DNA of 64,000 nt from an uncultured Bacilli bacterium (lineage in GTDB: Bacteria > Bacillota_I > Bacilli_A > RF39 > UBA660), in NCBI GenBank assembly GCA_944368815.1, contig CALVXD010000001.1, forward strand, positions 13,093-77,092, given 5' to 3'. Below, one piece after another: positions 195-57,655 of the stretch. The notes under the pieces were generated by a model. That model ran no database searches. It was given only the letters and a program-made list of their open reading frames with translations, and was not told the DNA's origin. The translations under genes and the position numbers were made by a program. Position 1 is the first letter of the stretch; every line of letters starts with the position of its first letter.

Positions 195-3100
195 TTAAAA
201 TAAACTTAATTGATTTGTTTCAGACATATCATTGAAAAGTCCCATTATTTTCATTTTATCAATTAATGTTTGTGATACTCTACATCTTTTTTGGAAATCT
301 TCAATACTAATAAATGTAGATTTTTCTCTTTCATTAACAATTGCTTCTGCTACACTTTCACCAAGTCCATCTAATGCTCTAAATGGTATGTATAATCCTT
401 TACCATCTTCAGTTATTACGAAGTCTTTGGCATCTGATTTATCTATATCAATATTTTTAAAATAGAATCCTCTTGCACACATCTCTAAACATAGATATAA
501 AACTCCACAAGTATCTATTTCTTTTTTACTAGCAGTTTTATTAGAAATTTTTTCTTCTATTTCATCTATTTTATTTCTAATACCATTTTCTCCAAGTATC
601 ATAGATGATGGATCAAACTGATCGCATCTTATAGAAAAGTATGCTGCATAATAATATATTGGATGATGAACTTTAAACCAGGCAATTCTAAAAGCACTTG
701 TTACATACGCTGTTGCATGGGCTTTTGGGAACATGTATTTTATTTTTCTACATGACTCGATATACCATTCAGGAATTCCTGCTTCTCTCATTGTTTCTAC
801 ATGACCTTCCCAAGTTGCAGGATCTTTACTAGCTTTTCCTTTACGAACAAATTCCATTATTTTAAAGGCTTTCGCTGGTTTCATTCCCCATGCAATTAAG
901 TTAACCATAATGTCATCACGACACCCAATTACATTTTTAAATGGAACTTTAATTTCACCATTTTCATCAGGTGTACACAAATCTCTTGCATTCCCTAACC
1001 ATACGTCAGTACCATGGGATAGTCCTGATATTTTAATAAGTTCTGCAAATGTTGTTGGTTTAGTTTCTTCTAACATTCCAAGTAAGAATGATGTACCAAA
1101 TTCAGGAATTCCGAGTGTTCCAGTTGGACAATATTTTCTTCCATTTTTATCTGTAAGTCCTCTTAATCTATCTTTTTCTACTCCAAGAACTTCCGGGCCA
1201 CAGAATATCTTCATCGTATCTCTGTCTCCTAAGTCTATTTTAGTAACATCTATTCCTGATAAATCTTGAAGTTTTCTAAGTACAGTCGGATCATCGTGTC
1301 CTAGTATATCTAGTTTTAACAAATCCGCATCAATAGCATGGTAATCAAAGTGAGTAGTTCTCCACACACTTGTGGGATCATCCGCTGGATATTGGAATGG
1401 TGTAAAATCCCAGACATCTTTATATCCCGGAACTACTACTATTCCTCCAGGGTGTTGTCCTGTTGTTCTTTTAACTCCTGTACATCCCACTGATACTCTT
1501 TCTACTTCTGCTACTCTAGCACTTACTTTTAGTAACTTTTTCTTCTTTAAATCATCTTTACTAGGAACTGACAAGCCATAACTATTTGCTTCTATTTTAA
1601 GAACATTATGAGCTTGTTCTTCATAGAATCCTAAAACATAACCATATGCTGTTTTATCTGCAACTGTACCAATAGTCCCTGCCCTATATACATTATCTGT
1701 TCCAAATAATACTTTTGTATATTCATGAGCTGATGCTTGGTTATCTCCGCTAAAGTTAAGGTCAATATCAGGGACTTTATCAGCATTGAAACCTAAGAAA
1801 GTAGCAAACGGCATATCATTTCCTTCGTGTACCATTTTTGATTCACATTTTGGACACATTCTTTCTGGTAAATCAAAACCGCTAGCATAATTTTTAGATA
1901 AAGGATTACCCTTTTCATCATTAAAAATACTATATCCACAATTAGGGCAATAATAATGTGCTGGTAATCCATTACATTCTGTTATTCCCATCATATTGGC
2001 AACGAGAGATGAACCAACAGAACCACGTGATCCTACTAAGTATCCATCATCATTTGAGTGCTTAACTAACTTTTGGGCAATTAAGTAAATAACGTCAAAG
2101 CCTCCACCAATGATACCTCCTAATGATGCTTTAGCTTTTTCTATCGCAACTTCATCAGTTAAAGTATTATCTTCTCTTTGCATCTTTTCTTTAACTAAGT
2201 TAACTACCCCATCATATCCACTCATAATAACATCATGAAGTACACTAGGTAACATTTTATCTTTTTTATTTTCATCCAAGTCAGGATAATCTAAATTAAT
2301 CTTATCTTTTACAAGTCCTAAAATAGTATCACCATAAAATTCTTGAGCAATTCTCTCTTCAATCATCCTAGGAAGGGGATTACCATACATGCTATGTGCT
2401 TTAGTATAAACTAAATCACGACATGTCTCCTGTGAATGTTCAATAATTGGCGAATATGGTTTATCAGGATATTCTACTACTTCTATTTCACTAATCATAT
2501 CTAATATTTTATTAGGGTTAACTACTACTATTTCATTAATCAAGTCTTCATCTTCTAACCAAGAAAATTCTTCTTTCATTTCATTAGTAGTTCTTAAGAA
2601 TTGATTAGGTATATGACCACTTACAGATAATTTAGTGGGTTCATAATAACGGAAATCATCTACAAGAGAATATACTATTTTTTCATCTTTAGTTCTAAGT
2701 TCTATAATATTTAAAGATTGGAACTTTCTAAGAGCATCTTCTATTTTACTCTTCTTATATTCTTCTTTAGATTTTAATATTTCTTCTTCTTTATTATTTT
2801 TATCTATTTGATATAACTCTACTAAATTCATAAGAGTAATTGGAATATCTTTAACATTAGTTAAAGTGTAAATATATTTAAGTACCTTTACATCAATAGA
2901 AGTTAACTCTACTCCCTTAGTTTTTACATACTCTATTAGATTTTCTATATTTTCATTATTGACATTACCTTTAAGATTCCCTGACAAATATCTAGCAAGA
3001 GGATGTCTACCTTTACCAGGAACATTTTGATTTACAATAATTTCTCTATATAATACATCTTCTTTATTTATATTATGTACGTCTCCAGTTGCCACAATTA

Positions 3101-5882
3101 ATTTATTGCATTTTTTAGCACAATAAATTATTTTCTTTATACATTTTTTTAAGTGCTCTATATTATTTATATCGTGTCCTTTTAACAAATGGGAATAGTT
3201 TTCTATTGGTTGTACTTCAATATAATCATAAAACTCCATTGCCTTCATTAAGTCTTCTTCATTACGAGTTTCTGCTAAATAGAAAATTTCTCCATTAAGA
3301 CAAGCAGAACCTATAAGTAATCCTTCTCTGTTTTCTTCGATTAATTTTCTAGGTATTTTAGCATTTCTTACAATAAAGTTAGTATTTGCATAACTAATTA
3401 TTTTAAATAAATTTTTAAGTCCTACTTTATCTTTTGCTAAAAATGTAACATGCTTAGTATTATCATATAAATTAGCAATATGTTCTGTAATCGTTTTTCC
3501 AGGAATATTCTCATACATTTGTAAATAATTATCATGACACCAAGGATACTTCCATATATATTCCTTATTGTTGTATCCTATAAATGGATATCCCCTTTTT
3601 TCATCCTCTTCTATATTATTCGTACAAGGCTCGACATAATTTTTATAACTGCATAAATCATGTATATTTTCTAGTTTTTTAGGATCATTTTTAAATGAAA
3701 TTTCTTCTAGTAATTTCAAATCATTTAACTCACTAATTTTATTAATTCCTTCAATTTGTTTTAACATTTTAGCAAATATATAACCAGTATTTTCTGAGTC
3801 AACATCCGCACCATGGTGTTGTCCAACATATATTTTAATTTTAATGGTATTAAATTCATCAATATTTACTACTTCTTCATTTTCTGCTGGATGTAATTTT
3901 ATATCTTTTTCTATTACATTATTATCTTTTAAATTAATTATTAAATGACAAGTTTCTGTTTTACTAGCCTTACGAACTTTGTTTAAATAAGTTCCTTCTT
4001 CGGTAGTTTTTAATATAGATTCACCATCTACCTTTATATCTTCTAATTTATTTAGTAAATAATTATCTAATTTTACACTACTACTTGGTACTCCACTTGC
4101 ATTTTCTTCATCTTCTTCATCTGCTTCTCCGGTATTTATTCCGTAAAATTTACCTAACGCTTTTAAACTATGTTTCTTTAAGTCCCTATTTATTACTCTA
4201 GATAACATAAGTGTATCTATGATTGGATTTTCTAACTTACCTAAATCATATTTATAATAGGCCATATCTAACATATTTTTATCAAATCTTGCATTATGTG
4301 CTACTAAAGGTAAAGTACCAATCCATTCTTTAAATCTTTTTACAACATTTTCTTCATTGTCAGAATCTTTTACATCATCATCTGATATATCTGTAACTCT
4401 TGTTATTTCTTCATCAATATGATGACCAGGATTAATTAATTCATCAAAACGATCTACAACTTCTCCATTTTTTAATTTAACTGCACCAAGTTCAATCATT
4501 GAGTCTCCCAAACCTGGATTAAATCCTGTTGTTTCAGTATCGAATATTACGAATGTATTATTTTCGATTAATTCATCATTCGGATTAAAACATACATTTA
4601 AATATGATTCACACATATCTATTTCGCTACCATATGCTACTTTAAAATATTTTAAATTATCTTTTTCTTTTATAGCATTTTCAAGTTCTATATTTAATTC
4701 ATCTAAACCTTCTGTTTTACCTTCATTAGTAAGTGTTTCTATTTTACCTTTAATTTCTTCTATTTTAGCAGTTGTTGCTTTCTTTAATCCTTTATTATAA
4801 CTAGTAACTTCCCCGAAAACATGAGGAAAAGCTTGACAACAATCGTGATCAGTAATAGCGATACCAGGGTGTCCAAATTTAATTGCCTGTTTAACTAATT
4901 TTACTTCATCACATACTCCATCCATTTGACTCATCATTGTATGAGCATGTAATTCCACTCTTTTTTCTTTGGCATCATCTGCTCTTTTATTTTCTTCTTG
5001 TCCATCAATTGCAGTAATATCTTTAAATCTTGTATTGAATACTAATTCTTTTGCAAATTCATCTGTTACTACTTTTCCATAGAATCTATAGTACTTTCCT
5101 TCTTTTAATAAATCTTTAAGTCTTGCAAACTCATCTTCACTTTTAGTAAATATTTTTGCATACATACTATCAGTACCATCAGTAACTTTTAAAGTAAATA
5201 TTTTATATCCACTTTTAGATTCAAATATATCTATTCCAAATAATTTTATTTCAATATTTATATTATCTATTTCATTTTTAATGTCTTTTATTGAAACTAC
5301 ATCTTCACTTTTCTTTTCACGATAATTATTCTTAACTTCTTTTTTTTCTTCAAAAACATAAGTTTCATTTACAACTTTATCTTCTTCAATTTGTTTTAAT
5401 AATTCATCTTCCCCTGTATTATCCATTACTATATTTAATTTATAATAATACCCATATTTTCTAAGTCTATCATTAATTCGTTCTAATTCTTGTAGTAAAT
5501 AAGCTTTTTCTATTTTATTATATACTTTTATTTCAATGTTATCTTCATTAACTATTATTTCTCTATCCTTAAATATATTATATTTGCTACTACTTTTAAT
5601 TAAACTATCAATAATTAAATTAAAATATTCATTAAGATACTCGTTATCTTTATTTTTACTAATAATAGTTAAATCTATTTTGTCAACATTAAATGATTCT
5701 GATAATTTATTATTTAAATAAGTATATACATAACTAGGTATATTATTATCTACTATAATAACAAATTCCCATAATTTAGTTTTATCATATACTATTATTT
5801 TTTCTAATTCGCTGTTATCAAAATATTCCATATATTTATCTAAATTTATTTGTTTAAATAATTTTTCTAATTTACTACTCAT
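195..5882 (-). CDS. polC: DNA polymerase III PolC (Gram-positive type), unusually long at 1895 aa
   Basis: PHP motif VELHAHTMMSQMDG; DEDD exonuclease FVIFDTETTGFNP..VAHNARFDKNML; polymerase core GYLVGSRGSVGSS, CPNCG/CPKC zinc motif, KVPDIDLNFSG; C-terminal NQLSLF as in B. subtilis PolC. Promoter-like TGaTTATAAT and a GGTGG RBS lie upstream. Confidence 0.92.
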   Translation of the reverse strand: MSSKLEKLFKQINLDKYMEYFDNSELEKIIVYDKTKLWEFVIIVDNNIPSYVYTYLNNKLSESFNVDKIDLTIISKNKDNEYLNEYFNLIIDSLIKSSSKYNIFKDREIIVNEDNIEIKVYNKIEKAYLLQELERINDRLRKYGYYYKLNIVMDNTGEDELLKQIEEDKVVNETYVFEEKKEVKNNYREKKSEDVVSIKDIKNEIDNINIEIKLFGIDIFESKSGYKIFTLKVTDGTDSMYAKIFTKSEDEFARLKDLLKEGKYYRFYGKVVTDEFAKELVFNTRFKDITAIDGQEENKRADDAKEKRVELHAHTMMSQMDGVCDEVKLVKQAIKFGHPGIAITDHDCCQAFPHVFGEVTSYNKGLKKATTAKIEEIKGKIETLTNEGKTEGLDELNIELENAIKEKDNLKYFKVAYGSEIDMCESYLNVCFNPNDELIENNTFVIFDTETTGFNPGLGDSMIELGAVKLKNGEVVDRFDELINPGHHIDEEITRVTDISDDDVKDSDNEENVVKRFKEWIGTLPLVAHNARFDKNMLDMAYYKYDLGKLENPIIDTLMLSRVINRDLKKHSLKALGKFYGINTGEADEEDEENASGVPSSSVKLDNYLLNKLEDIKVDGESILKTTEEGTYLNKVRKASKTETCHLIINLKDNNVIEKDIKLHPAENEEVVNIDEFNTIKIKIYVGQHHGADVDSENTGYIFAKMLKQIEGINKISELNDLKLLEEISFKNDPKKLENIHDLCSYKNYVEPCTNNIEEDEKRGYPFIGYNNKEYIWKYPWCHDNYLQMYENIPGKTITEHIANLYDNTKHVTFLAKDKVGLKNLFKIISYANTNFIVRNAKIPRKLIEENREGLLIGSACLNGEIFYLAETRNEEDLMKAMEFYDYIEVQPIENYSHLLKGHDINNIEHLKKCIKKIIYCAKKCNKLIVATGDVHNINKEDVLYREIIVNQNVPGKGRHPLARYLSGNLKGNVNNENIENLIEYVKTKGVELTSIDVKVLKYIYTLTNVKDIPITLMNLVELYQIDKNNKEEEILKSKEEYKKSKIEDALRKFQSLNIIELRTKDEKIVYSLVDDFRYYEPTKLSVSGHIPNQFLRTTNEMKEEFSWLEDEDLINEIVVVNPNKILDMISEIEVVEYPDKPYSPIIEHSQETCRDLVYTKAHSMYGNPLPRMIEERIAQEFYGDTILGLVKDKINLDYPDLDENKKDKMLPSVLHDVIMSGYDGVVNLVKEKMQREDNTLTDEVAIEKAKASLGGIIGGGFDVIYLIAQKLVKHSNDDGYLVGSRGSVGSSLVANMMGITECNGLPAHYYCPNCGYSIFNDEKGNPLSKNYASGFDLPERMCPKCESKMVHEGNDMPFATFLGFNADKVPDIDLNFSGDNQASAHEYTKVLFGTDNVYRAGTIGTVADKTAYGYVLGFYEEQAHNVLKIEANSYGLSVPSKDDLKKKKLLKVSARVAEVERVSVGCTGVKRTTGQHPGGIVVVPGYKDVWDFTPFQYPADDPTSVWRTTHFDYHAIDADLLKLDILGHDDPTVLRKLQDLSGIDVTKIDLGDRDTMKIFCGPEVLGVEKDRLRGLTDKNGRKYCPTGTLGIPEFGTSFLLGMLEETKPTTFAELIKISGLSHGTDVWLGNARDLCTPDENGEIKVPFKNVIGCRDDIMVNLIAWGMKPAKAFKIMEFVRKGKASKDPATWEGHVETMREAGIPEWYIESCRKIKYMFPKAHATAYVTSAFRIAWFKVHHPIYYYAAYFSIRCDQFDPSSMILGENGIRNKIDEIEEKISNKTASKKEIDTCGVLYLCLEMCARGFYFKNIDIDKSDAKDFVITEDGKGLYIPFRALDGLGESVAEAIVNEREKSTFISIEDFQKRCRVSQTLIDKMKIMGLFNDMSETNQLSLF

Positions 5883-5956
5883 AAAACCACCATAAGATTA
5901 TTGTACCAAAAAAAAAGATTATAATAAAGATATTTTTACTTTATTATAATCAAATT

Positions 5957-6745
5957 TTATACTCCCATTGTATTTGTTTCAGGTAATGTTGAACCACCAT
6001 CAATTACAAATTCTGTACCTGTCATATAAGATGAATCATCACTTGCTAAAAAAGCCGCTAAATTACCAAGTTCATGGATAGTTCCCATTCTTTTCATTGG
6101 TATTCCTTGTTCTATTCCATGAATTACTGATAATGGATCTTCTTTATTAGTAAGCTTGGCCATATTATCTACCATTGGTGTTCTAATATATCCAGGAAGT
6201 ATTGCATTTACTCTTATATTATCATTTACATATTCCATTGCTAATGATTTTGTAAATCCAATTAATGCTGCTTTTGTAGTAGCATACGCAACTTCTCCAG
6301 TATCTGCTACCATTGGTCCTGTTACACTTGATAAATTAATAATAGAGCCTTTTCTATTCTTTTGCATATAAGGAATAACTGCTTTTGTTACATTCCATGT
6401 TCCTTTGATATTTATATCAAAGTGATAATCTCTTATTTCATCAGTTGTTTTTTCAAAAGTCTCCAAATAACATACACCAGCATTATTAACTAATATATCT
6501 ATTTTTCCATATCTTTCTGCTATTTTATTAATACAAAAATCAACTTTATCTTTTTCACGAATATCAACTTTATATCCGCAAACATCATGTCCTTTACTTG
6601 CTAAATCATTAATTACAGTTCTAAGTTCTTCTGAATAATCTAGTATCGCTACCTTTACACCACGAGATACAAATACATCTACTATTCCTCTACCATTACC
6701 TTTTGCTCCACCTGTTACTACCGCTACTTTCCCATCTAAATTCAT
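5957..6745 (-). CDS. SDR family oxidoreductase (3-oxoacyl-ACP reductase / glucose dehydrogenase-like)
   Basis: N-terminal Rossmann motif VAVVTGGAKGNGRG; NNAG; YxxxK region (YATTKAAL). Confidence 0.8.
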   Translation of the reverse strand: MNLDGKVAVVTGGAKGNGRGIVDVFVSRGVKVAILDYSEELRTVINDLASKGHDVCGYKVDIREKDKVDFCINKIAERYGKIDILVNNAGVCYLETFEKTTDEIRDYHFDINIKGTWNVTKAVIPYMQKNRKGSIINLSSVTGPMVADTGEVAYATTKAALIGFTKSLAMEYVNDNIRVNAILPGYIRTPMVDNMAKLTNKEDPLSVIHGIEQGIPMKRMGTIHELGNLAAFLASDDSSYMTGTEFVIDGGSTLPETNTMGV

Positions 6746-6749
6746 TGTA

Positions 6750-7367
6750 TCACCTTCCTTTTATTCTATCTTTATCTTCTACTAAAGCTTTTTGAAATTC
6801 CATTTCTAATAAAGTTTTTGTAAAAAAAGCCATTCTTATTCCCTCTAACATATTATTACTATCAACTTGAGACCAATCTAATTTATAATTAGGAATTCTT
6901 GTTTCTACCAATTCTCTTAAAAATTCTCTAATAGTTCTTCCATTGCCTTCTCTAAAAGGATGAACTTTTATTAAAGCACTATAAGTATTAGCCAAAAATC
7001 TAGCATAATCTTCAAAATAATGACATGTTTCTAATTCTTCATTCATTTCTTTAATAACAATTTCTAACTCTATATCAATATTTTTTACTGAAGTCACATA
7101 CAAATTGCCTTTTCCCATAAAAACTGTCCTATATTGTCCAGCAAATGGATAAATTTCTTCAAACAAATACTTATGAATATCACATAAATGTTTTTTATCA
7201 AAATTACCATTTATTGGTTCCTCATACAATTCAACTAATTTTTTAAAAACAATTTCAGATTCTTTGGTTTTTAATTCTTCATTATCCCTAATTCCAAATT
7301 TATTCTTTAAAACACCATCAGTTCCTGGAATTAAATATTCTTCCCATTTCTTATCTTCTTCTGTCAT
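6750..7367 (-). CDS. Fic family protein (AMPylation toxin domain), class I
   Basis: Canonical Fic active-site motif HPFREGNGRTIR (HxFx[D/E]GNGRxxR); 205 aa; its start overlaps an upstream small ORF. Confidence 0.85.
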   Translation of the reverse strand: MTEEDKKWEEYLIPGTDGVLKNKFGIRDNEELKTKESEIVFKKLVELYEEPINGNFDKKHLCDIHKYLFEEIYPFAGQYRTVFMGKGNLYVTSVKNIDIELEIVIKEMNEELETCHYFEDYARFLANTYSALIKVHPFREGNGRTIREFLRELVETRIPNYKLDWSQVDSNNMLEGIRMAFFTKTLLEMEFQKALVEDKDRIKGR

Positions 7368-7503
7368 TTACCAAAATTCTCCTTCGCACTGGTTTTTGAT
7401 GTTCTTGCCTTACTTCATCTATTTTTTTCTTACTAACTGTTAAATTTTCTAATGCTAAACTTGCAAGCACCTCTTCAATTATTTTATTAATATCTCTTTC
7501 CAT
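7351..7503 (-). CDS. Small Fic antitoxin (VbhA/anti-Fic-like), 50 aa, absent from the ORF track
   Basis: ATG at 7503, TAA at 7351-7353; translation MERDINKIIEEVLASLALENLTVSKKKIDEVRQEHQKPVRRRILVNDRRR. It contains SLALEN, matching the inhibitory helix motif [S/T]xxxE[G/N], and overlaps the Fic start by about 17 nt. Confidence 0.55.
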   Translation of the reverse strand: MERDINKIIEEVLASLALENLTVSKKKIDEVRQEHQKPVRRRILVNDRRR

Positions 7504-7518
7504 ACAACCACTTCTTTT

Positions 7519-9057
7519 CTACATGAAAGGTGCCAAAAATCTCAACACTCTTCCTATTGTTTTTTTCATAATATTATAGTCATCAACTTCTTTTTCTGTT
7601 ATTCTTATTGATTCATTAATTGTTTTATTATAATCCTCTTGAATTTCTTCAATAACCTTATTTTTATAAATATAACATGCACATTCAAAATGTAAATATA
7701 AACTTCTATAATCCAAATTAATAGTACCTACAACCGCCTTACAATTATCACTTATAAACATTTTAGCATGTGTAAATCCTCTCTTAAATTCATATATTTC
7801 TACTCCACTACTAATTAAATCTTTATAATAACTTCTACCTAAATAATAAACCATCTTTTTATCCGGTATATGCGGCATAATTATTCTTACTTTAATTCCT
7901 CTATTTGAAGCATATATAATAGAAGACAATAATTCATCATCTAATATTAGATAAGGAGTAATTATATCAACATATTTATTGGCAGTATTTAAAATATCCA
8001 TATATACTCTCTTACCAGTCTCGTATTCGTCTAATGGACTATCACCATAAGGAATTACATAACCATCATTATTTGATTTTTCATTAATATTATTAACATA
8101 TTTTTCATAATTATCTTCTTTTTTTTCATCTATATTCCACAGTTCTAAAAACATTACTACAAAACTATTAACAGAAGTTCCTTCTATTCTAATTGCCGTG
8201 TCTTTCCAATAACCATATTTTTCTTTTTTATTTATATATTCATCTGCTAAATTTATTCCTCCTGTATAACCAATTTTACCATCAATTATACAAATTTTTC
8301 TATGGTCTCTATTGTTTTGATGTAATGACAATTCTAATTTTACAGGAAAAAATGGTTTACATTTTATTCCAAACTTTTCTAATTCTTTTTCGTAATTATA
8401 TGGAAGAGTAATTAAAGAGCCTAATCCATCATACATTACTCTAATTTCCACACCTTCTTGAGATTTTTCTTTTAATATTTCTAAAATTGTATCCCACATA
8501 TATCCTTTTCCTATTATAAAATATTCAATAAAAATATATTTTTCAGCACTTTTTAAATCATTTAATAAGGATTTAAATTTTTCTTCACCATTTTCAAAAT
8601 ATTTTATTTTACTACCATTGTAAACTGGATAACCACAAGTACTATATAAGTATTTAGATAAATTACTAAAACTTATATCATTTTTTTTAATGTCTTGATA
8701 TAAATTAGCATCTTGAACTAAATATTTTTGAATATTTTTTCGAATTTTTTTCAATTTTTTCGAAATATATTTTAATGAAATTTGGAAATGACAAAATATA
8801 AAAGCTGTGACTCCTATTACAGGAAATATTAAAATTGGTATTATCCAAGCAATTTTGTATGATGGATTTGTCTTGGTATTTATTAAATATAGTACTAATA
8901 CAATGGATAATATACTAGTACCTCCTACTATCCAAACAATATATTTATAGAAAAATAAGAAAGATATATATACAACTAATATTTGAGCAATTAATAATAA
9001 AATTGCTAAAGTTAATCTTGAAAAAACTATTTTAAATAATCTATTTACTATTTTCAT
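7519..9057 (-). CDS. cls: Cardiolipin synthase
   Basis: Two N-terminal TM helices and two HKD motifs (HRKICIIDG...GGINL and HAKMFISDN...GTINLD). Confidence 0.85.
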   Translation of the reverse strand: MKIVNRLFKIVFSRLTLAILLLIAQILVVYISFLFFYKYIVWIVGGTSILSIVLVLYLINTKTNPSYKIAWIIPILIFPVIGVTAFIFCHFQISLKYISKKLKKIRKNIQKYLVQDANLYQDIKKNDISFSNLSKYLYSTCGYPVYNGSKIKYFENGEEKFKSLLNDLKSAEKYIFIEYFIIGKGYMWDTILEILKEKSQEGVEIRVMYDGLGSLITLPYNYEKELEKFGIKCKPFFPVKLELSLHQNNRDHRKICIIDGKIGYTGGINLADEYINKKEKYGYWKDTAIRIEGTSVNSFVVMFLELWNIDEKKEDNYEKYVNNINEKSNNDGYVIPYGDSPLDEYETGKRVYMDILNTANKYVDIITPYLILDDELLSSIIYASNRGIKVRIIMPHIPDKKMVYYLGRSYYKDLISSGVEIYEFKRGFTHAKMFISDNCKAVVGTINLDYRSLYLHFECACYIYKNKVIEEIQEDYNKTINESIRITEKEVDDYNIMKKTIGRVLRFLAPFM

Positions 9058-9063
9058 GTTACT

Positions 9064-9567
9064 TTATCTTTTTCTTATCCTATTTTTTTGTTTATCAAAG
9101 TAAAGATCCAATAAATCTTTAGGAGTAGGAGTTTCCATAGTTTCTTGAAAACTTTGCCAATACAATAGCCCATCTACTATTTTCAAATCATCTACTATAA
9201 TTATTCGATAATCACTTATTTGATTTACAAATTTATATATTATCTGTTTTAATTCTTCAGAAATATTATCAGGAAAATAAAATATACCTGTTTTGACACT
9301 TTTACCATTCATATCTTTGCTAGTTGTATTACAAAATACCACATGTCCTAATTCCACAAAATAATAACTTATTGTAGGAGGTGTATGTTTTACATTTAAT
9401 TTTTGAAATGCATCAATATCGGGAAAATATTTTCTACCATATTCCAATATAGTAGCAGAGTGTAATAAATTACTATTTATATTTCCTATCATATCTATTT
9501 TTCCAAATTTATCTTTTCTTTTTTCATCATTATCTCCATATATTACCGCAGCAATATAATTATCCAT
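9064..9567 (-). CDS. Hypothetical protein
   Basis: 167-aa ORF tightly packed between cls and murE; no recognisable motif. Confidence 0.4.
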   Translation of the reverse strand: MDNYIAAVIYGDNDEKRKDKFGKIDMIGNINSNLLHSATILEYGRKYFPDIDAFQKLNVKHTPPTISYYFVELGHVVFCNTTSKDMNGKSVKTGIFYFPDNISEELKQIIYKFVNQISDYRIIIVDDLKIVDGLLYWQSFQETMETPTPKDLLDLYFDKQKNRIRKR

Positions 9568-9582
9568 ATGTATCTACCTCTT

Positions 9583-11052
9583 TTATTTATTATATTTTAG
9601 TTCTTCCAATATTTCTTTTATGATAACCCTTTCATCAAATGGTTTTCTAATACCATTTATTTCTTGATAATCTTCATGCCCTTTACCTAAAAGTAATATA
9701 ATATCTCCTTCTTCAGCATTTACAATACTATATTTTATTGCTTCTTTTCTATCCGGTATAGTTATATACTTTCCATTAGTTTTATGCATACCTATTAATA
9801 TATCGTTTATTATATCATTAACATCTTCGTATCTAGAATTATCTGCAGTTATTATTGAAAAATCTGCTAATCTACCTGATACTTCTCCCATTTCATATCT
9901 TCTATCTTTACTTCTATTACCACCGCATCCAAAAATTGTTACTATACGTTTAGGATTATATTCTCTAATTGTTGTTAATATACTTTCTGTTGATACACCA
10001 TTATGAGCATAATCTATAAGTAAATTAAATTTATCAGAAATTGGAACCGGTTCTACTCTTCCTTTTACAGCTATAGTTGATAATGCTCTTTTCATTGAAT
10101 CTATTGAACATCCTATTAAAAATGTTGTTAACATAGCACACATTGCATTATATGCTGAAAATGTTCCAGGAGTATTAATTTTAAAAGTATCAGAAATAAC
10201 TCCTCCAGTTGTCATACTAATACCTATAATACCTTTTTCTCTTAAAAGTTCTACTTTATCACAATATAAATTAGCTTTTTTATCATATCCAAAAGTATTA
10301 ATATCACAAGTACAGCCATTAATCATTTTATTATAATTACTATCATCTATATTAAATATTCCATGAATAGATTGTTTAAATAGTAATGATTTACATTCAA
10401 TATATTCTTCCATTGATGCATGTTCTCCATCACCAATATGATCATGTGTTAAATTTGTAAATACACCATAATCAAAAGTTATTCCATCTACTCTTCCTAA
10501 CTTTAATGCTTGTGATGATACCTCCATTACAGCATATTCAATGTTATTATCAACCATTTCTTTTAGATATTTATGAATATCATAAGATTCAGGTGTAGTA
10601 TTTACTAAATCATAATGTTTATCATTTATAAATACACCCATAGTACCTATGACACCAACTGATTTATTATCTTCTTCCAAAATTCTTTTAATCATCCATG
10701 TAGTAGTAGTTTTTCCTTTTGTTCCTGTTATTCCAATCATTTTTAATTTTTTAGAAGGATTATCAAATAAATTAGATGATAATAATGCTAAACTCCTTCT
10801 AGTATCATTTAACTTAATAACAGTTACATCATTATCTAATTGTACATCTTTTTCTACAAAAATAACTTTTGCTCCATTTTTTATTGCATCATCAATATAC
10901 TTATGACCATCCATATTATGACCTACTAATGCAATAAAAGCATCATTTTCTTTAACGTTTTTAGAATTGTAACAAATGTCATTTATTTCTACATCTATAT
11001 TACCCTTTACAACTTCATAATTAATATTTTTTAACACATCTTTTAACAACAT
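9583..11052 (-). CDS. murE: UDP-N-acetylmuramoyl-L-alanyl-D-glutamate--2,6-diaminopimelate (or lysine) ligase MurE
   Basis: Mur ligase P-loop GITGTKGKTTTT; MurE-like N-terminus (MLLKDVLKNI...), DYAHN and other C-terminal domain features. Confidence 0.88.
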   Translation of the reverse strand: MLLKDVLKNINYEVVKGNIDVEINDICYNSKNVKENDAFIALVGHNMDGHKYIDDAIKNGAKVIFVEKDVQLDNDVTVIKLNDTRRSLALLSSNLFDNPSKKLKMIGITGTKGKTTTTWMIKRILEEDNKSVGVIGTMGVFINDKHYDLVNTTPESYDIHKYLKEMVDNNIEYAVMEVSSQALKLGRVDGITFDYGVFTNLTHDHIGDGEHASMEEYIECKSLLFKQSIHGIFNIDDSNYNKMINGCTCDINTFGYDKKANLYCDKVELLREKGIIGISMTTGGVISDTFKINTPGTFSAYNAMCAMLTTFLIGCSIDSMKRALSTIAVKGRVEPVPISDKFNLLIDYAHNGVSTESILTTIREYNPKRIVTIFGCGGNRSKDRRYEMGEVSGRLADFSIITADNSRYEDVNDIINDILIGMHKTNGKYITIPDRKEAIKYSIVNAEEGDIILLLGKGHEDYQEINGIRKPFDERVIIKEILEELKYNK

Positions 11053-30179: not shown

Positions 30180-30941
30180 AAGTATTCAGAGCAAAAGTCA
30201 AAATAAATTTTGACTAACTTACCTCATGGTAAGTTTTTTCTACTTCTTAGGAATATACATTCCTCCATAGACCAGGATCGGATAGTGCTACCCTACTTAT
30301 ATTAAATCGTCAAAATTTATGGTGTCATTAGTTCTTTTTCGTAAGTTTTAATATATATATTTAATCCTTCTAACATAATATTTATTCACTTCTTTTTTGA
30401 TAACAGCACTTTTTATCGTCCCATTAAATGTATTTTTATTTCTATATCCTCTTATTGGTACTTCTTTTAGTTTCGGTAAAGTTATTGTTTTGTTTTTTAA
30501 ATCTAATTTTATACTATTATAATATTTACCTTTATAAGTACTCTTTATATTATTAGTTTTATAACTATTATGAATTCCCCTTATTTTAAATTTAGGATAT
30601 CCTCCTAAATTTTTATAATATCTTTTATAAGCATCTTCTAAATTAAATACACTATTTCTAAGAGCACAACTATCTGCTTCTTTTAAAAAAGTTTTTTCTT
30701 TTGAAAGTTCTGAAATTAACTTTATTCCACTATATGCATTACTAATTTTTTTATCTAAAAAATAGTTATAAATGAATCTACAACTATCTATTGTTTTATT
30801 TATTAATTTTTCTTTGCATTTATTTGGGTACATTCTAAATTTATAAGACTTATATATTTTCATGTTACAACCACCACCCGTAATTGCATTATAAAATATA
30901 AACATTTGTTTGTTAATATTTTTTTGTAAGCAAAAAAACAT
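30180..30941 (-). mobile_element. Decayed IS200/IS605-family element (tnpB-only remnant plus right-end relic)
   Basis: Truncated tnpB ORF plus perfect palindromes GTCAAAAT-AA-ATTTTGAC (30197-30214) and AACTTACC-TCAT-GGTAAGTT (30215-30234) and a GC-enriched patch (30240-30300). Confidence 0.45.
30348..30863 (-). pseudogene. tnpB: Truncated TnpB (IS605 OrfB) N-terminal fragment
   Basis: MKIYKSYKFRMYPNKCKEKLINKTIDSCRFIYNYFLDKK matches the conserved TnpB N-terminus (KAYKFRLYPT..Q...LN.TFG.CRFVYN). Only about 171 aa, versus about 400 aa for intact TnpB; ends before RuvC-I. Confidence 0.6.
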
Positions 30942-32141: not shown

Positions 32142-33194
32142 TTATTTATAATCTTTTATAGATTTTTCATATTTTTCTTTCATTACAGTATCAGAAAATT
32201 CTAATCCTGCTTCTTCTCTCATTTTTATTAATGTTTTATTATATAAATTTTTATCACTAGCATCTAGTTCATCACATAATTCTTCAATAATTGAATCTCT
32301 TACATCATCCAAACTTGGTTTTTCTTTTTGATCTGTACGATAAATTACGTGATATCCATAACTTGTCTTAACAGGTTCCTTAGTATAACTATTTTCATCC
32401 AATTTTTCTAATGCTTCTAAGAAAGAAGATTCTAAATTAGCATTAAACGCTACATATTTTAAGTTTTCATAAGTTACTGAATCTTTATATTCTTCTTTAA
32501 CTTCATCAAAACTTTTTCCCTCATTTAATTTACCAATAATTTCTTCTGCTAATGCTTTTGCATCTTCATCGCTCATATCATCATTTACACTTACTAATAA
32601 ATGCTGAGTATTGATATCTCCATAAACTTCTTCATCATAATATTTTTGAATTTGTTCATCTGTAATTTGACTCTTTAAATACTCCTCATAATAAAGTTTT
32701 CTTCTATAATCTAACTTTAACATATCTAAGAATTGATCTTTACTATCAAATCCATTTTGAGCTAAAAAAGTAGCTTCATCCATTCCATAATATTGTTCAT
32801 ACATATCAAAATAACTTTGTGCAGTTTTTTCTACTTCTTCTTTCATTTCGTCATTTTCTTCGTATTTTTCATCTAAAATTGCTTTATCAATATACTCAAT
32901 CAAATAAGATATGTTGTAATCTTTCTTCATTTCTTCATATAAGAAATCTGCTGTTATTGTTTCTTCATTAACTTTTAAAATTGGTTGTGTTCCATCAGAA
33001 AGTGTAGCAATTCTATCTGGCCATATAATTACAGTTATTAAAGCTACTAAAAGAGCACCTCCTATAAAAGAGAAAATTAAATTTCTATTTTCATCTATTT
33101 TTTCTAATCCCTTTTTTAACTTATCATTATTTTTTTTGATTTTTTCTCCTTTTTTCTTCTTGTTATCAGAAACTTCATGTTTGTTCTTTTCCAT
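32142..33194 (-). CDS. prsA: PrsA-like foldase (PpiC-type peptidyl-prolyl isomerase), membrane anchored
   Basis: K-rich N-terminus with a TM helix; parvulin motif SYGYHVIYRTD near the C-terminus. Confidence 0.7.
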   Translation of the reverse strand: MEKNKHEVSDNKKKKGEKIKKNNDKLKKGLEKIDENRNLIFSFIGGALLVALITVIIWPDRIATLSDGTQPILKVNEETITADFLYEEMKKDYNISYLIEYIDKAILDEKYEENDEMKEEVEKTAQSYFDMYEQYYGMDEATFLAQNGFDSKDQFLDMLKLDYRRKLYYEEYLKSQITDEQIQKYYDEEVYGDINTQHLLVSVNDDMSDEDAKALAEEIIGKLNEGKSFDEVKEEYKDSVTYENLKYVAFNANLESSFLEALEKLDENSYTKEPVKTSYGYHVIYRTDQKEKPSLDDVRDSIIEELCDELDASDKNLYNKTLIKMREEAGLEFSDTVMKEKYEKSIKDYK

Positions 33195-33384
33195 TTTTCT
33201 AACATCCTTTCTTTAATACAATTATTATAATAACAAAAATAAAAAAAAAATACAACACTTTTGTTTAATATATTGTAAATTCCACAATTTCCCATATTTA
33301 TATTAATATATTTTGAAAATTATTCACACTTTTTGCAATTTTCCCATACAATAATGTGAAAAGACAAAAAAGGAGGAATGAATT

Positions 33385-33465
33385 ATGGGAAATCACGGAT
33401 CATCAGCAGCTATTGTTTTAGTTCTATTTATTTTATTAATAATTGTCCTTGGAGCATGGATATAA
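33385..33465 (+). CDS. YjcZ-like small hydrophobic peptide (26 aa), absent from the ORF track
   Basis: Strong RBS AAAGGAGGAATGAATT-ATG; MGNHGSSAAIVLVLFILLIIVLGAWI resembles sporulation protein YjcZ family cores (G-rich N-terminus plus FALIVVLFILLIIVG). Confidence 0.45.
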   Translation: MGNHGSSAAIVLVLFILLIIVLGAWI

Positions 33466-33492
33466 TCCCAATTAGAATAGGAGGTGTTTAAT

Positions 33493-33606
33493 ATGTCTAA
33501 TAATTGTTCAACTAATTCTTGTGGTTGCAATAGTGGAAATGGATTCTTAATCATAATTGTATTATACATTTTACTTGCAATCATCTTAGGTTCTTGCTTA
33601 TTTTAA
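33493..33606 (+). CDS. Second small Cys/Asn-rich hydrophobic peptide (37 aa), paralogous in architecture
   Basis: RBS AGGAGGTG 8 nt upstream; MSNNCSTNSCGCNSGNGFLIIIVLYILLAIILGSCLF; followed by a perfect hairpin terminator. Confidence 0.4.
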   Translation: MSNNCSTNSCGCNSGNGFLIIIVLYILLAIILGSCLF

Positions 33607-33845
33607 AAACTATCTATAAGATAGTTTTTCAGGCCGTTGACAAAGTCGATTTTTCAAATCGGCTTTGTCAATCGGCTTTTTATATTCCCCACTTTAATAT
33701 AAAAAAAGAACAATTTTAGGAAATTATCATCTAAAATTATTTGATTTTTAAAGTTTTACTCCCACTTTTGAAAATTCAATTTTTAGATTTTTTCAAAAAA
33801 GGTAGTTTGTCAACAGTCTGAAAAACTATCTATAAGATAGTTTTT
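33605..33845. repeat. About 240-bp element bounded by 41-bp imperfect terminal inverted repeats, each embedding a 25-bp palindromic terminator
   Basis: Left end aaaaactatctataagatagtttttcagGCCgttgacaaaG; reverse complement of right end aaaaactatcttatagatagtttttcagACTgttgacaaaC. Internal 16-bp stem (TTGACAAAGTCGATTT/AAATCGGCTTTGTCAA, one G-U) at 33637-33671. Confidence 0.45.
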
Positions 33846-33846
33846 T

Positions 33847-34470
33847 TCATTTTACTTTATTTAGTAGTTTTGTTAAATCATATAATTTACTAAGTTTACT
33901 ATTCCATTTATTATTTATTTCACTTAATAATATTTCTTTTATATTATTTTTATCCTCTTCTTTTTCAAAATAATCATAATAAATATATTTAAGTGTCAAT
34001 TCATCATCTAAGGAACTTATATAGTCTTTTATAAACTTTTGTTTTTCTTTTACAATTCTACTAATATTATCACTTTTTTGTTTTTCATTTTTAATAAATT
34101 CTATTTTTACCTCTTTTATATTTTCACTTTCATCAATTACTTCCTCTTCTTCATCAAATAACATACTACTTCTTTTTATTAAATATCCATTATTATTAAA
34201 CATTACCCCAAATGCTGACATCCCATTTGTTACTAAACATATTATATTTCCTTCTATTTTTTCGTTGTATAATGAAAAATTCTTTTTTAAGGAATCAATA
34301 GTTTCCATAGATACTTGTACTTTATTATTTCTAAGAGATACATATGTATTTTCATCTACTTTTAAGACTGGTATTTTTCTTACATTAATTACATTATCAT
34401 TGTTTTTCCACTCGTAAAAATCATAAAATTCTTCATTAAAATTTAAAATAATATCATAAATATAATTCAT
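33847..34470 (-). CDS. Hypothetical protein
   Basis: 207-aa ORF; no recognisable motif. Confidence 0.4.
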   Translation of the reverse strand: MNYIYDIILNFNEEFYDFYEWKNNDNVINVRKIPVLKVDENTYVSLRNNKVQVSMETIDSLKKNFSLYNEKIEGNIICLVTNGMSAFGVMFNNNGYLIKRSSMLFDEEEEVIDESENIKEVKIEFIKNEKQKSDNISRIVKEKQKFIKDYISSLDDELTLKYIYYDYFEKEEDKNNIKEILLSEINNKWNSKLSKLYDLTKLLNKVK

Positions 34471-34675
34471 ATTTTCTATCTCCTTTATTTATTAATGTTA
34501 ACACTATAATTATTATACCTATTATAACTAAATATAATAAATTACTCTTAATTATAAAGTTTACATATTCATAAAAATTATACCCAATTGTAAGTAAATT
34601 TAAATATAAAATTATATTAGAAACACCAATAACAACAAACCAGAATCCTATTAAAAACAAAAAAATATGTGCCAT
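34454..34675 (-). CDS. Small membrane protein
   Basis: 73 aa with two TM helices; slight overlap with the downstream gene. Confidence 0.3.
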   Translation of the reverse strand: MAHIFLFLIGFWFVVIGVSNIILYLNLLTIGYNFYEYVNFIIKSNLLYLVIIGIIIIVLTLINKGDRKYELYL

Positions 34676-54072: not shown

Positions 54073-54642
54073 CTAATAGTTTTCTATGTTTACAAGATTT
54101 CCAATGTATACTGTTTGCATATTATCGTTATTAAGAGTACAAGTAATTAAAGTAATAGTTCTAATATCACTATCCTTATGTATAGTTATTTTACCATCCT
54201 TTCTTTCATTATAAATATTTACTATTTTATATGTATATTTCTTTCCATTATAGTAAATATAACAATAATCATTAATAACTAATTTATATAAATATCTAAA
54301 ATATGATACATCACTAGTTCCTGAATGACCTGCAATTACTAAATTACCTTTTTCTATATCTGGCATATTAGAAGAATTAATTATTTCTAAATTTTGATTA
54401 ACATTATTTTGAAATGAATCTATATTATATAGTCCTTTTTTTAAGTTTATTTTAGGTATTTCTAATATCATTAAATATTCATTTATATTAGTATCTTTTT
54501 TAGTATTATCAACCTCTTCTTTTTCAAAGAACATATTTATATTATTTTTTTCTATTATACCTTCCCTTTTATCATTAATAATTGTATTAAGTACCCACAT
54601 TATACTAACTCCTATTAAAAGAAATCCTATTCTTTTTATCAT
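54073..54642 (-). CDS. Small sortase (class D/B-like transpeptidase)
   Basis: N-terminal TM, catalytic His region LVIAGHSG, active-site Cys in TLITC, conserved Arg downstream; 189 aa. Confidence 0.75.
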   Translation of the reverse strand: MIKRIGFLLIGVSIMWVLNTIINDKREGIIEKNNINMFFEKEEVDNTKKDTNINEYLMILEIPKINLKKGLYNIDSFQNNVNQNLEIINSSNMPDIEKGNLVIAGHSGTSDVSYFRYLYKLVINDYCYIYYNGKKYTYKIVNIYNERKDGKITIHKDSDIRTITLITCTLNNDNMQTVYIGNLVNIENY

Positions 54643-56125
54643 ATATTATTAAACTAACTCCTACACAAAAGATTCCTAAAATACTAAAAGATTTAGTATA
54701 ATCCTTATTTAATAAAGTATTAGGTACTTCTATTACTGGTTCATTTTCTACAGTTAAATTAATTACTTCTTTATTTTCTTTTATTTCAAAATATATTTTA
54801 TTACTATCTAAAATATATCCCTCTACTGTTTCTACTTCTACAAGATAATATTTTCCTAAAGGTAAGTTCTCTATTAAAATTTTCCCTTCTTCATTAGTTA
54901 CTGTTTCTAATATAAATTCATCATTTTCTGTATATAATTGAAATTTAGTATTAGGTAATTTATTTCCATTAGTTTTATCTATTTTAATTAATTCTAAACT
55001 ACCTTTTGGCAACTCATTTTCTATATTGAAATTAGTTGTAGCTAAACTAGGATTATCTTTATCATATATTAATTCAAATTTATACTCTGTATCTATTGCA
55101 ATATTTCCCATAGATGAAGATACTTCTTTTAATATATATTTTCCAAAGTATAAGTCTTTAATCGTTACTTTTCCTTCTTCATTCGTTTTGTAAATACCAA
55201 TCACATCACCTTTATTATAAATAGTTTTACCTTGAACTATAATTGGTTCATCTACTATTAATTCAAAAACTACATTACTTAAAGGTATATTTTCATAGAG
55301 TATACCATTATCAAATTTAACAGTTTCTCCTATTTTATTTATTTCTATTTCTCCAGAATGAATATTAATATTTACATTAGCACTTTTATTTTCTAGATAA
55401 CCTGATGTAAGAAATTTTTGAGAACTTCCTGCATAATAAAACATAAATACTTCATTTGTATAACTTTTTCTTTTTAAATTTATAGAATTAACATTATCTA
55501 ATATATATAATTTATTATCAAAAACATAGGAATTATTTCTATCAATTATTTCATAATCATTTAATACTAAATTTTTATCTTCAATTATAATATCTTGTCC
55601 TTTTATAAAATCAAAAGTATTATTATTAAAAGACGGTAATAAATTATTTTTATTTACTTTATCTAAAATATTGTTTTTTTCTTGTTCTACATCAATTCTA
55701 GGTCCATGTACTTGATCAATGCTTGTCCAATATACTTCTCCTTTACCATTTAATACAGCCTCCCATATTAATTCTTGAGCGGCTAAAAAATATTTTATAT
55801 CACTTTTATTAAAATAATCATATCCATAATAAGCAATTAACTTTATTCTTTCTTTTACTTCATTAGGCAAATTCAATTTATCAAAATTACTAGTAGAACT
55901 ATAAATAGAAGTAGTTATATGAACATTAGGTTCAATACAATAAGCTGTTTTACCATTCATTATAAATAAATCTTGTAAATATAAATAATATTCACCATTA
56001 GACATTTCAAATACTGCGTATATATCCCCAATATATTCTTGTTTTAATTTAGAATCATTTATTTCCCCTTTTATACTAATTGGCATAATTAATAACATTA
56101 TAATTATAAATATTATTTTTTTCAT
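54605..56125 (-). CDS. Surface adhesin with a thioester domain (TED) and CnaB-type domains; sortase substrate
   Basis: Signal peptide. TED motifs: Cys in TAYCIEP and Gln in AAQELIW ([YFL]C..; .Q...W). Two CnaB/prealbumin-like repeats (LPLGKYYLVEVETVEGY, LYFGKYILKEV). C-terminal sorting signal VPNTL + TM (ILGIFCVGVSLII) + KKNR tail. Confidence 0.6.
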   Translation of the reverse strand: MKKIIFIIIMLLIMPISIKGEINDSKLKQEYIGDIYAVFEMSNGEYYLYLQDLFIMNGKTAYCIEPNVHITTSIYSSTSNFDKLNLPNEVKERIKLIAYYGYDYFNKSDIKYFLAAQELIWEAVLNGKGEVYWTSIDQVHGPRIDVEQEKNNILDKVNKNNLLPSFNNNTFDFIKGQDIIIEDKNLVLNDYEIIDRNNSYVFDNKLYILDNVNSINLKRKSYTNEVFMFYYAGSSQKFLTSGYLENKSANVNINIHSGEIEINKIGETVKFDNGILYENIPLSNVVFELIVDEPIIVQGKTIYNKGDVIGIYKTNEEGKVTIKDLYFGKYILKEVSSSMGNIAIDTEYKFELIYDKDNPSLATTNFNIENELPKGSLELIKIDKTNGNKLPNTKFQLYTENDEFILETVTNEEGKILIENLPLGKYYLVEVETVEGYILDSNKIYFEIKENKEVINLTVENEPVIEVPNTLLNKDYTKSFSILGIFCVGVSLIIYDKKNRISFNRS

Positions 56126-56272
56126 ATAATCCCCCTAACTTAATTTTTATAATTATATTTTTATCATATATTATGTCATTAAATCTCCTCCTTCAACTAA
56201 ACCCCTCTATATATATTATTGATAAAAAAAATGTCAAATTACTTCTTTTTTCCAAAAAAAATAAAAAAACTT

Positions 56273-57655
56273 TCAAAATTTTACGTATTCGTTCAATTTT
56301 AAAAGCTTATCGTTAATTTTTAAATACATTGTATATTTACCATTAAGTCCATATGAATTAATATATTTAACATTTTTATTAGTATCTATTTCGTATACTT
56401 TCTTACCTAGAAATTTATCTAAAACAAAATATACTTCATCATCTTTATTAAAATCATATTCTATTACTAATCGATCATATTCTTTATATATATTTATTTC
56501 ATCTTTGTATTCTTTAGAAAATAATATATTAATATTCTTATCACTTGTTTCTGTTTCTTTATATTTTGATAAATATATTTCTTTTGTTATATTAAAATAT
56601 ATATCATTATTTAAATTAATATTTTCTATATCATATATTTGATTATTAGACTTAATTTTTATTATTTCGTCAACATTTATATTTGGTGTATCCACAAAGT
56701 ATGTGGATAACTCATCAGGAACATAATCCTTATTCCCAATTATTTTATTTAAGTCTGTTTTTTCATAATCATAATATAAGGTTATATTTTTTCCAGTTAA
56801 AATTACTTGATTAGTTTTTGAATCATATGACAATTGTATATAATTATCACTAGTTTTATATAAATTATATTCTTTTAATACATTTCCTGTTTGTATATCA
56901 ATTAATATTATATTTTCGCTTAAAACTAGTAATTTAGTATCATCAATTTTGTATATTAAACCATTGTATCCGTCTTCTAAATTATATTCATAATATATTT
57001 TCCCTAGTAAATCAATATTAACTATTCCTGTATTACTATCATCATTATTAAATCTATTAGTGCTTAGAAATAAATGATTATTGGAGTCTACCACTATATC
57101 TTTAGAATAACCACCTTCTAAATAATATCTTATCTCTCTATATTTATCTATTCCCACAACAACACCATTATTAGTACTTATTAAATTAATTCCATTAGTT
57201 GTTTCCACAACATCTGTGGATATATCACTATTTTCTACTAAATCTGTTTTTATTTTAACTTCTTTGTCCACAGTATCTGTAGATAGAACTACTCTATTTT
57301 CATAATTAGAATATAATCCATAAATTGGTATATAATGCTCTTTCGTTTCATTTGCTTCTTTATACGTTATATCATCATTATTTTTTCCTTTTATAGTTAT
57401 CGTAAATTTTTCTCTTTTATCTGTCTCAAACATAATAAGTGCTGTTAGAGGACTATTTCCATATGGATTTACTATTATTTTAGGATTATCAATAGTATAA
57501 CCATAACAAGTAAATGTACTCTCTATTTCACTTTGTAATGTAATTGTATCTTTTACTTCCTTTACTTCTTTTTTAGGAGATATTAAAATCACTCCAACAA
57601 TTGTTATAATTATTATTGACACTATAAAAGTTATAATAAAATATAATTGTTTCAT
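56273..57655 (-). CDS. Membrane-anchored extracellular protein, possibly arylsulfotransferase (ASST)-like beta-propeller
   Basis: N-terminal signal anchor; 460 aa; repetitive beta-strand-rich composition. Family assignment is tentative. Confidence 0.3.
   Translation of the reverse strand: MKQLYFIITFIVSIIIITIVGVILISPKKEVKEVKDTITLQSEIESTFTCYGYTIDNPKIIVNPYGNSPLTALIMFETDKREKFTITIKGKNNDDITYKEANETKEHYIPIYGLYSNYENRVVLSTDTVDKEVKIKTDLVENSDISTDVVETTNGINLISTNNGVVVGIDKYREIRYYLEGGYSKDIVVDSNNHLFLSTNRFNNDDSNTGIVNIDLLGKIYYEYNLEDGYNGLIYKIDDTKLLVLSENIILIDIQTGNVLKEYNLYKTSDNYIQLSYDSKTNQVILTGKNITLYYDYEKTDLNKIIGNKDYVPDELSTYFVDTPNINVDEIIKIKSNNQIYDIENINLNNDIYFNITKEIYLSKYKETETSDKNINILFSKEYKDEINIYKEYDRLVIEYDFNKDDEVYFVLDKFLGKKVYEIDTNKNVKYINSYGLNGKYTMYLKINDKLLKLNEYVKF

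Follow-up and report, generated by a model that had tools for sequence, protein, structure and literature searches.

Two tandem small-protein genes of the YjcZ family with a candidate sigma-K-type promoter in an uncultured lineage of gut Bacilli

The YjcZ family is composed of tiny proteins of fewer than 50 amino acids, among them YjcZ of Bacillus subtilis and the multiple Bacillus cereus paralogues, and is described by the models PF09680 (YjcZ_2) and TIGR01732 (tiny_TM_bacill). The B. subtilis yjcZ gene was assigned to the sigma-K regulon through gene-specific analysis (PMC517825). Spore formation in uncultured low-GC (guanine plus cytosine) Bacilli is an open question, and the placeholder orders RF39, RFN20 and ML615J-28 are reported to have reduced sporulation gene sets, some of their families lacking spo0A (PMC10868615). 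Here, we describe a locus of two YjcZ-like mini-genes in a 64,000-nucleotide stretch of DNA from an uncultured Bacilli bacterium (RF39; UBA660), which corresponds to positions 13,093 to 77,092 of contig CALVXD010000001.1 (assembly GCA_944368815.1) and is referred to below as the window. The two open reading frames (ORFs), p1 and p2, encode peptides of 26 and 37 amino acids. That both are genuine coding genes, and belong to the YjcZ family, is in little doubt. The locus as a whole is quite probably best explained as a YjcZ-family operon pair with sigma-K-type expression late in the mother cell, the products of which would be tail-anchored membrane peptides.

Both mini-ORFs are housed in a gap of 652 nucleotides between two minus-strand genes. 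They form an operon of two genes of ~270 nucleotides, from a predicted transcription start near 33360 to a terminator ending at 33629. The features of the locus are as follows.

33323-33329, plus strand: -35 region TTCACAC; its conserved 'AC' is at 33326-33327, 17 nucleotides 5' of CATA
33345-33353, plus strand: -10 region CATACAATA, of the sigma-K type CATAnnnTA, with a sigma-A-like hexamer, TACAAT, inside it
33354-33364, plus strand: conserved block ATGTGAAAAGA, which surrounds the predicted transcription start
33372-33376, plus strand: ribosome-binding site GGAGG of p1, with an 8-nucleotide spacer to the ATG; kept in the aligned cassettes
33385 (ATG) to 33465 (TAA), plus strand: p1 ORF, 26 amino acids, a YjcZ-family peptide, MGNHGSSAAIVLVLFILLIIVLGAWI
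33480-33484, plus strand: ribosome-binding site GGAGG of p2, with an 8-nucleotide spacer to the ATG
33493 (ATG) to 33606 (TAA), plus strand: p2 ORF, 37 amino acids, a putative divergent YjcZ paralogue, MSNNCSTNSCGCNSGNGFLIIIVLYILLAIILGSCLF
33605-33629, plus strand: intrinsic terminator AAAAACTATCTATAAGATAGTTTTT, a 25-nucleotide palindrome of A-tract, hairpin and T-tract that can work bidirectionally
33393-33584, minus strand: antisense shadow ORF of 63 amino acids, not a gene

The coding status of p1 and p2 rests on their conservation. Three routes led to related contigs, namely a neighbouring 207-amino-acid protein, look-ups of homologues by exact protein sequence and a scan of metagenomes. 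These gave 41 distinct cassettes from related uncultured Bacilli, and a p1-like ORF lies immediately 5' of a p2-like ORF in every one of them. The promoter, p1, p2 and the terminator hairpin recur together as one unit in the recovered cassettes. A few p1 copies have a TTG or GTG start, and the copy in locus L104 is a 61-amino-acid version with a long Gly/Tyr-rich head. A purine-rich motif resembling a ribosome-binding site (GGAGG or GGGGG) is found directly 5' of p2 in the cassette regions displayed. In the window, an in-frame GTG at 33484 is an alternative start for p2 and would give a product of 40 amino acids.

The hydrophobic cores were then compared across eight lineages, in which the neighbouring proteins are 31-70% identical to those of the window. 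The ratio of nonsynonymous to synonymous differences per site (pN/pS) is 0.15 for p1 and 0.25 for p2, with synonymous sites near saturation (pS 0.62). Third codon positions dominate the variable columns, with counts at positions 1, 2 and 3 of 9, 3 and 17 for p1 and 12, 5 and 18 for p2. Both frames are under strong purifying selection. A preliminary description, made from the sequence of the window, had proposed two real mini-proteins here and had named a lack of conservation in related genomes as grounds for rejecting them. The conservation of the pair, the codon-position pattern and the ribosome-binding sites bear the proposal out, and all of the features are found at the coordinates given there. 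That description was right on observation and essentially right on interpretation. No further YjcZ-like ORF was found in the 64-kb window beyond the pair, and a search against Rfam returned a single chance miRNA-like match, below threshold.

p1 is a member of the YjcZ family by both curated models, as had been suggested from its sequence. It scores 24.2 bits against PF09680 (gathering score 21) and 27.3 bits against TIGR01732 (cut-off 21.35), where the match covers profile positions 2-26 of 26 with an E value of 2.2e-6. A 73-amino-acid hydrophobic control ORF from the same window has no YjcZ match, and so composition alone does not yield the match of p1. When the pair was scanned against Pfam at E values up to 10, only YjcZ_2 and a spurious Ac81 match were returned. 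A search for related solved structures in the PDB found none by sequence.

The position of p2 is less simple. Its own scores are 17.0 bits against PF09680 (cut-off 21) and 21.0 bits against TIGR01732 (cut-off 21.35). Homologue searches have a minimum length of 40 amino acids; p1 and p2 were submitted concatenated for this reason, and the matches were checked one by one. The concatenated query found 103 proteins. Among 65 p2-like proteins, 59 match TIGR01732, 48 match PF09680 and none match any other family. The best TIGR01732 E value in this set is 8.4e-6, close to that of p1, and judged from the E values the best p2-like members probably clear the TIGR01732 cut-off. Aligned with hhalign, the p1 and p2 profiles match at 96.7% probability (E 4.5e-10), which indicates that the two genes are paralogues. 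A profile of the 65 p2-like sequences was also searched exhaustively against 1.84 billion cluster representatives and matched 306 clusters at E <=1e-3; the motif VLYILLAII is present in 99 of 140 newly fetched top matches. NCBI names some p2 homologues as 'YjcZ family sporulation protein' (for example MBQ6494425.1) or 'sporulation protein YjcZ' (MDD6244791.1). In IMG, a p1 homologue whose call begins at an upstream GTG bears the TIGR01732 family label, and P0050 is among the homologues named in this way. The proposed YjcZ-likeness of p2 is supported by its relatives, the profile comparison and the database names of its homologues; its own scores fall just short of the cut-offs. By sequence, p2 appears to be a divergent YjcZ paralogue of a distinct subfamily rather than a model-certified member.

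Both peptides have the build of YjcZ proteins as read from their sequences, being tiny with a small polar head and a single C-terminal transmembrane segment. In p1, a polar head of 7 residues is followed by 19 hydrophobic residues, and the predicted transmembrane segment reaches the last residue. In p2, an uncharged Cys/Asn/Ser/Gly-rich head of ~16 residues is followed by ~20 hydrophobic residues with the near-invariant core GNGFLIIIVLYILLAIILGS and the tail CLF. Among the 65 p2-like proteins, V23, Y25, I26, L27, L28, A29, I30 and I31 are invariant, and the proteins end in a short tail with aromatic residues or Cys (CFF, CLF or YLY). The heads are variable. They range from 14 to 26 residues, are composed of 24% N, 15% G, 13% C, 13% S and 11% T, and mostly contain 2-3 Cys; 24 of the 65 have no charge at all.

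The operon ends at the hairpin terminator that had been predicted for it. The palindrome at 33605-33629 overlaps the p2 stop codon and folds into a stem of 10-11 bp (folding free energy -8.9 kcal/mol) with a T-run. A hairpin with a T-run follows p2 in each of eight diverged lineages, and its stem sequence differs from lineage to lineage. In this strain the hairpin is duplicated by a 216-nucleotide insertion (33630-33845), of which the preliminary description made no mention. The second exact copy of the 25-nucleotide palindrome is at 33821-33845, 3' of a 191-nucleotide element at 33630-33820. Terminal inverted repeats, CAGRCYGTTGACAAA, bound this element, which also contains a 17-bp hairpin with a T-run at 33636-33672 (-29 kcal/mol). 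It has one copy in the window, and its end is also seen in L014. The same-species contig L012 and loci L001-L003 have one hairpin and no 191-nucleotide element. In strains without the insertion, the one hairpin also terminates the convergent gene of the 207-amino-acid protein. The insertion looks like a recent event of the miniature inverted-repeat transposable element (MITE) type with a 25-bp target duplication, after which each convergent gene keeps a terminator of its own.

The promoter of the pair is well conserved. Across 33 distinct upstream regions, aligned on the -10 element, this element begins with CATA in 30 and TATA in 3, and ATA closes the 9-mer in all 33. At a fixed distance of 16-17 nucleotides 5' of CATA lies an 'AC', in most cases as part of CACA or AACA, and the bases 5' of the mAC vary. 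The spacer between the -35 and -10 regions is T-rich and otherwise variable. The conserved promoter is therefore mAC-N16/17-CATAnnATA (30 of the 33 variants), which the window carries as AC-N17-CATACAATA. Downstream of the -10 element, the TGA within ATGTGAA is at least 90% conserved, and the element is 29-33 nucleotides from the ATG. In B. subtilis, sigma-K promoters have the pattern AC-N16/17-CATAnnnTA. An inverted repeat, TCACA...TGTGA, flanks the -10 region; because it overlaps the -35 and start-site blocks, it is not treated as evidence of an operator.

Sporulation genes are present in relatives that carry the cassette. YunB is found at 129.3 bits on TIGR02832 (equivalog cut-off 111.9) and, in L109, lies together with the cassette on one contig of 11 kb. 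A SpoIVB peptidase scores 305.5 bits on TIGR02860 (cut-off 305.25). Both YunB and a coat protein of the YutH type adjoin PolC in another relative, which shares 74% AsnS identity with the window.

Several points weigh against a sporulation-linked reading of the pair. The -35 and -10 regions can also be read as a sigma-A promoter, TTCACA-N18-TACAAT, which agrees with the consensus at 10 of 12 positions, and the invariant bases TAnnnT are those that sigma-A requires. A loose sigma-K consensus has 7 chance occurrences in the window; as it is not significant by itself, the sigma-K argument rests on conservation. No recognisable sporulation gene was found in the 64-kb window by Pfam and NCBIfam scans of 30 proteins and inspection of the small ORFs. 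From their translations, we take its genes to include the housekeeping genes for PolC, MurE, FtsY, RNase Y, RecA, PFOR, AsnS, SufS/NifU, YchF, ClpP, DnaE, FtsEX, PrfB and others. Contigs that share the gene at the right edge of the window have neighbourhoods with only housekeeping genes, YunB homologues sought with a relative's protein as query showed no link to samples of this species, and the searches made found no sporulation gene attributable to this genome itself. In relatives, yunB is directly 5' of PolC; it is not so in the window, where the locus is rearranged, so this species may have lost sporulation. The 'sporulation' label of the YjcZ family rests solely on B. subtilis expression data, no member having a demonstrated function, and p2 itself is under both curated cut-offs, by 4 bits in Pfam and 0.35 bits in NCBIfam.

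Much of this would also fit small vegetative membrane proteins that are expressed under the housekeeping sigma-A and are unrelated to spores, for example modulators or accessory subunits of a membrane process tied to the neighbouring PrsA-like foldase, with a label inherited from Bacillus. Conservation of the divergent PrsA-like neighbour is strong, at 64 of 80 metagenome loci, and the lack of spo0A in some families of the reduced-genome orders (PMC10868615) points the same way. Such a vegetative role is possible but rather unlikely. The C and A before TAnnnT and the A after it are kept in at least 90% of the cassettes and are not needed by sigma-A, while the first three -35 positions, TTG in a sigma-A promoter, are variable; these features tip the balance toward a sigma-K/E-type holoenzyme. 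Sigma-K dependence is the one thing shown by experiment for the family (PMC517825), and YunB, SpoIVB and YutH are found in cassette-bearing relatives. The sigma-K -10 motif of the preliminary description therefore stands as a conserved motif, with its 'AC' in 30 of 33 regions, and shares its position with a fair sigma-A promoter. On the evidence of the aligned regions, sigma-K-type, sporulation-linked expression of the pair is modestly favoured.

The remaining explanations concern the nature of the products. Small size, strong hydrophobicity, a bidirectional terminator and a long stop-free antisense frame across both genes would suit toxins that damage the membrane, as part of a holin-like or type I toxin-antitoxin module in which the antisense strand supplies a regulatory RNA. 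However, the downstream sequence, where an antisense promoter is expected, is wholly different between lineages, and the sole minus-strand promoter-like site downstream in the window lies within the strain-specific insertion. Both ribosome-binding sites are strong and unsequestered, and the peptides lack the charged tail that is usual in type I toxins. Together with single-copy, syntenic genes under strong purifying selection across deep divergence, and with YjcZ as the only family matched, this makes a toxin module very improbable. It is scarcely credible that p2 is the precursor of a ribosomally synthesised and post-translationally modified peptide (RiPP) of the bacteriocin type, with its Cys/Ser/Thr-rich variable part as the core. 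In its favour, the p2 head varies greatly and has a high content of Cys (13%), Ser, Thr and Asn, mostly with 2-3 Cys. Against it, the variable part sits at the N-terminus without a conserved leader, and what is conserved is a transmembrane helix. Genes for a modification enzyme, a protease or an exporter are absent from the surroundings in the loci examined, where the neighbours encode the PrsA-like protein, the 207-amino-acid protein, RmuC, a helix-turn-helix protein and an acetyltransferase. Finally, the minus-strand ORF of 63 amino acids is the longest ORF of the interval and was picked by one automatic gene caller, and the plus-strand ORFs could in principle be its by-products. The preliminary description had called it spurious, and this is upheld. 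In L004 a stop breaks the antisense frame and in L001 a frameshift does so, with p1 and p2 intact in both, which identifies it as a shadow ORF. It has no Pfam or NCBIfam family match, substitutions track the codon phase of the plus strand, and indels in the p1-p2 spacer shift its frame in other lineages. A gene on the minus strand can be practically dismissed.

If p1 and p2 are late sporulation proteins, a sigma-K-type sigma factor would read the promoter and the pair would be produced late in the mother cell. With no more than 0-4 residues after the helix, and no signal peptide, both peptides are predicted to be tail-anchored in the membrane with the N-terminus inside. Because they are co-inherited and co-transcribed, they may act jointly in the mother-cell or outer forespore membrane, with p2 exposing its Cys-rich head to the mother-cell cytoplasm. 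There, the head could nucleate, or be cross-linked to, spore-envelope material. This last step is a guess by analogy with SpoVM and CmpA, two small mother-cell peptides of B. subtilis that take part in spore-coat assembly and act at the forespore membrane, and such a specific envelope-anchoring role is improbable as it stands. A somewhat broader proposal, still speculative and on the doubtful side, is that the cassette is an obligate two-peptide membrane module of a minimal late mother-cell programme kept by uncultured gut Bacilli with reduced genomes (RF39-, RFN20- or ML615J-28-like), in which the fast-evolving, Cys-rich p2 head would determine spore-envelope attachment or surface diversity. 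If true, the cassette would be a compact marker of functional sigma-K activity, and hence of sporulation, in lineages where this capacity is disputed.

With spore formation in uncultured low-GC Bacilli an open question (PMC10868615), the cassette is mildly interesting as a possible late-sporulation reporter. The sigma-K-type promoter is well conserved, short and easily cloned, and could be used to test late mother-cell transcription in these lineages. The locus is also of value for annotation, as gene callers may prefer the antisense shadow ORF to p2, and those that read TAG as sense may fuse p2 to p1. Neither the annotation nor the promoter finding changes the understanding of the YjcZ family itself.

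p1 is never called as a separate gene in the retrieved loci. Its length is 81-84 nucleotides, and the minimum gene length of Prodigal is 90 nucleotides, which would explain why p1 goes uncalled and is missing from the ORF track. In L013, the automatic gene caller annotated the antisense ORF. Eleven database proteins of 68-91 amino acids appear as p1-p2 fusions; in the two that were checked (P0008 and P0002), in-frame TAG stops had been translated as Q. Since TAG was read as glutamine, these fusions are artefacts of a recoding-aware gene caller, and the Rosetta-stone argument was dropped. In L015, L016 and L017 (ENA, Logan gene calls), the same TAG-as-Q reading merges p1, the spacer (GGAGG becoming Gly-Gly) and p2 into false database proteins of 70-90 amino acids. 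A read-through in P0006, in which TAT replaces the stop on a contig of 2x coverage, is probably a sequencing error.

The window has 22-32% GC, and the majority of its genes are on the minus strand. Two of these flank the cassette.

32142-33194, minus strand: gene of a PrsA-like peptidyl-prolyl isomerase, with Rotamase domains
33847-34470, minus strand: gene of a 207-amino-acid protein, without a Pfam or NCBIfam match

The PrsA-like gene lies on the strand opposite to the cassette in the 64 metagenome loci counted above and also in the window, L004, L015, L018, L019 and L022. The association holds even at 31-35% PrsA identity, and in the L008/L109 lineage the cassette is located elsewhere. It may reflect function or merely stable gene order. 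The 207-amino-acid protein is conserved beside the cassette in the genus, has 33-52% identity in more distant metagenome-assembled genomes and is present in 17 of 80 metagenome loci. Its gene is overlapped by that of a 73-amino-acid membrane protein (34454-34675, minus strand), which is YuzI-like in precomputed Pfam data and lies downstream of RmuC. In L008-L010 (~1800-9800), the cassette is just downstream of a conjugation-like block that encodes a TraC-like protein, a VirB4/TraG-type ATPase and a hydrolase with SpoIID and Peptidase_M15_4 domains. The SpoIID-domain match in the L008 lineage scores 43.5 bits against an equivalog cut-off of 234.75, and in this conjugation-like setting it is probably a transfer-associated wall hydrolase and not the sporulation SpoIID.

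Other observations in the window are independent of the cassette. PolC (195-5882, minus strand) is 1895 amino acids long, compared with 1572-1579 in relatives; its two extra segments, at residues ~588-799 and ~967-1085, have no aligning counterpart in the PolC of the relatives, have no Pfam domain and matched no intein model. An ORF at 30348-30941 (minus strand) has an N-terminal HTH_OrfB_IS605 domain alone and is likely a remnant of an IS605/TnpB-type element. At 54073-57655 (minus strand), a sortase adjoins a SpaA/thioester-domain surface protein and an arylsulfotransferase-N-domain protein, a cluster of the pilus or adhesin type in a gut bacterium with a reduced genome.

Compared with described systems, the pair most resembles the YjcZ proteins. 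Like them, its peptides have a head that is polar and Gly-rich and, after it, a single hydrophobic C-terminal helix bearing the motif (A)IVLVLFILLII(V)G, and the long Gly/Tyr-rich head of the L104 p1 is a further likeness. The promoter agrees with the sigma-K consensus, and yjcZ of B. subtilis is under sigma-K control (PMC517825). In contrast to YjcZ, which occurs as scattered single copies, p1 and the distinct p2 subfamily form a fixed two-gene unit. p2 has the core VLYILLAIILGS, a hypervariable Cys/Asn-rich head and scores under the curated cut-offs, p1 is just 26 codons long and escapes gene calling, and the host is an uncultured gut lineage of 25% GC in the class Bacilli. Type I toxins (Fst/Ldr, TxpA and BsrG-like) are alike in being hydrophobic, single-helix peptides of 25-40 amino acids, but the pair has no conserved antisense RNA locus, charged C-terminal tail or toxin-family match. 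SpoVM (26 amino acids) and CmpA (37 amino acids) have the very lengths of p1 and p2, a likeness that is a functional analogy only. Neither is related to p1 or p2 in sequence, and no such match is found in Pfam or NCBIfam at E values up to 10. SpoVM is an amphipathic surface helix, unlike the transmembrane helix here, and spoVM and cmpA are not adjacent in B. subtilis. The YjcZ small-protein family is already known, and what is new at this locus is the fixed pairing of p1 with p2.

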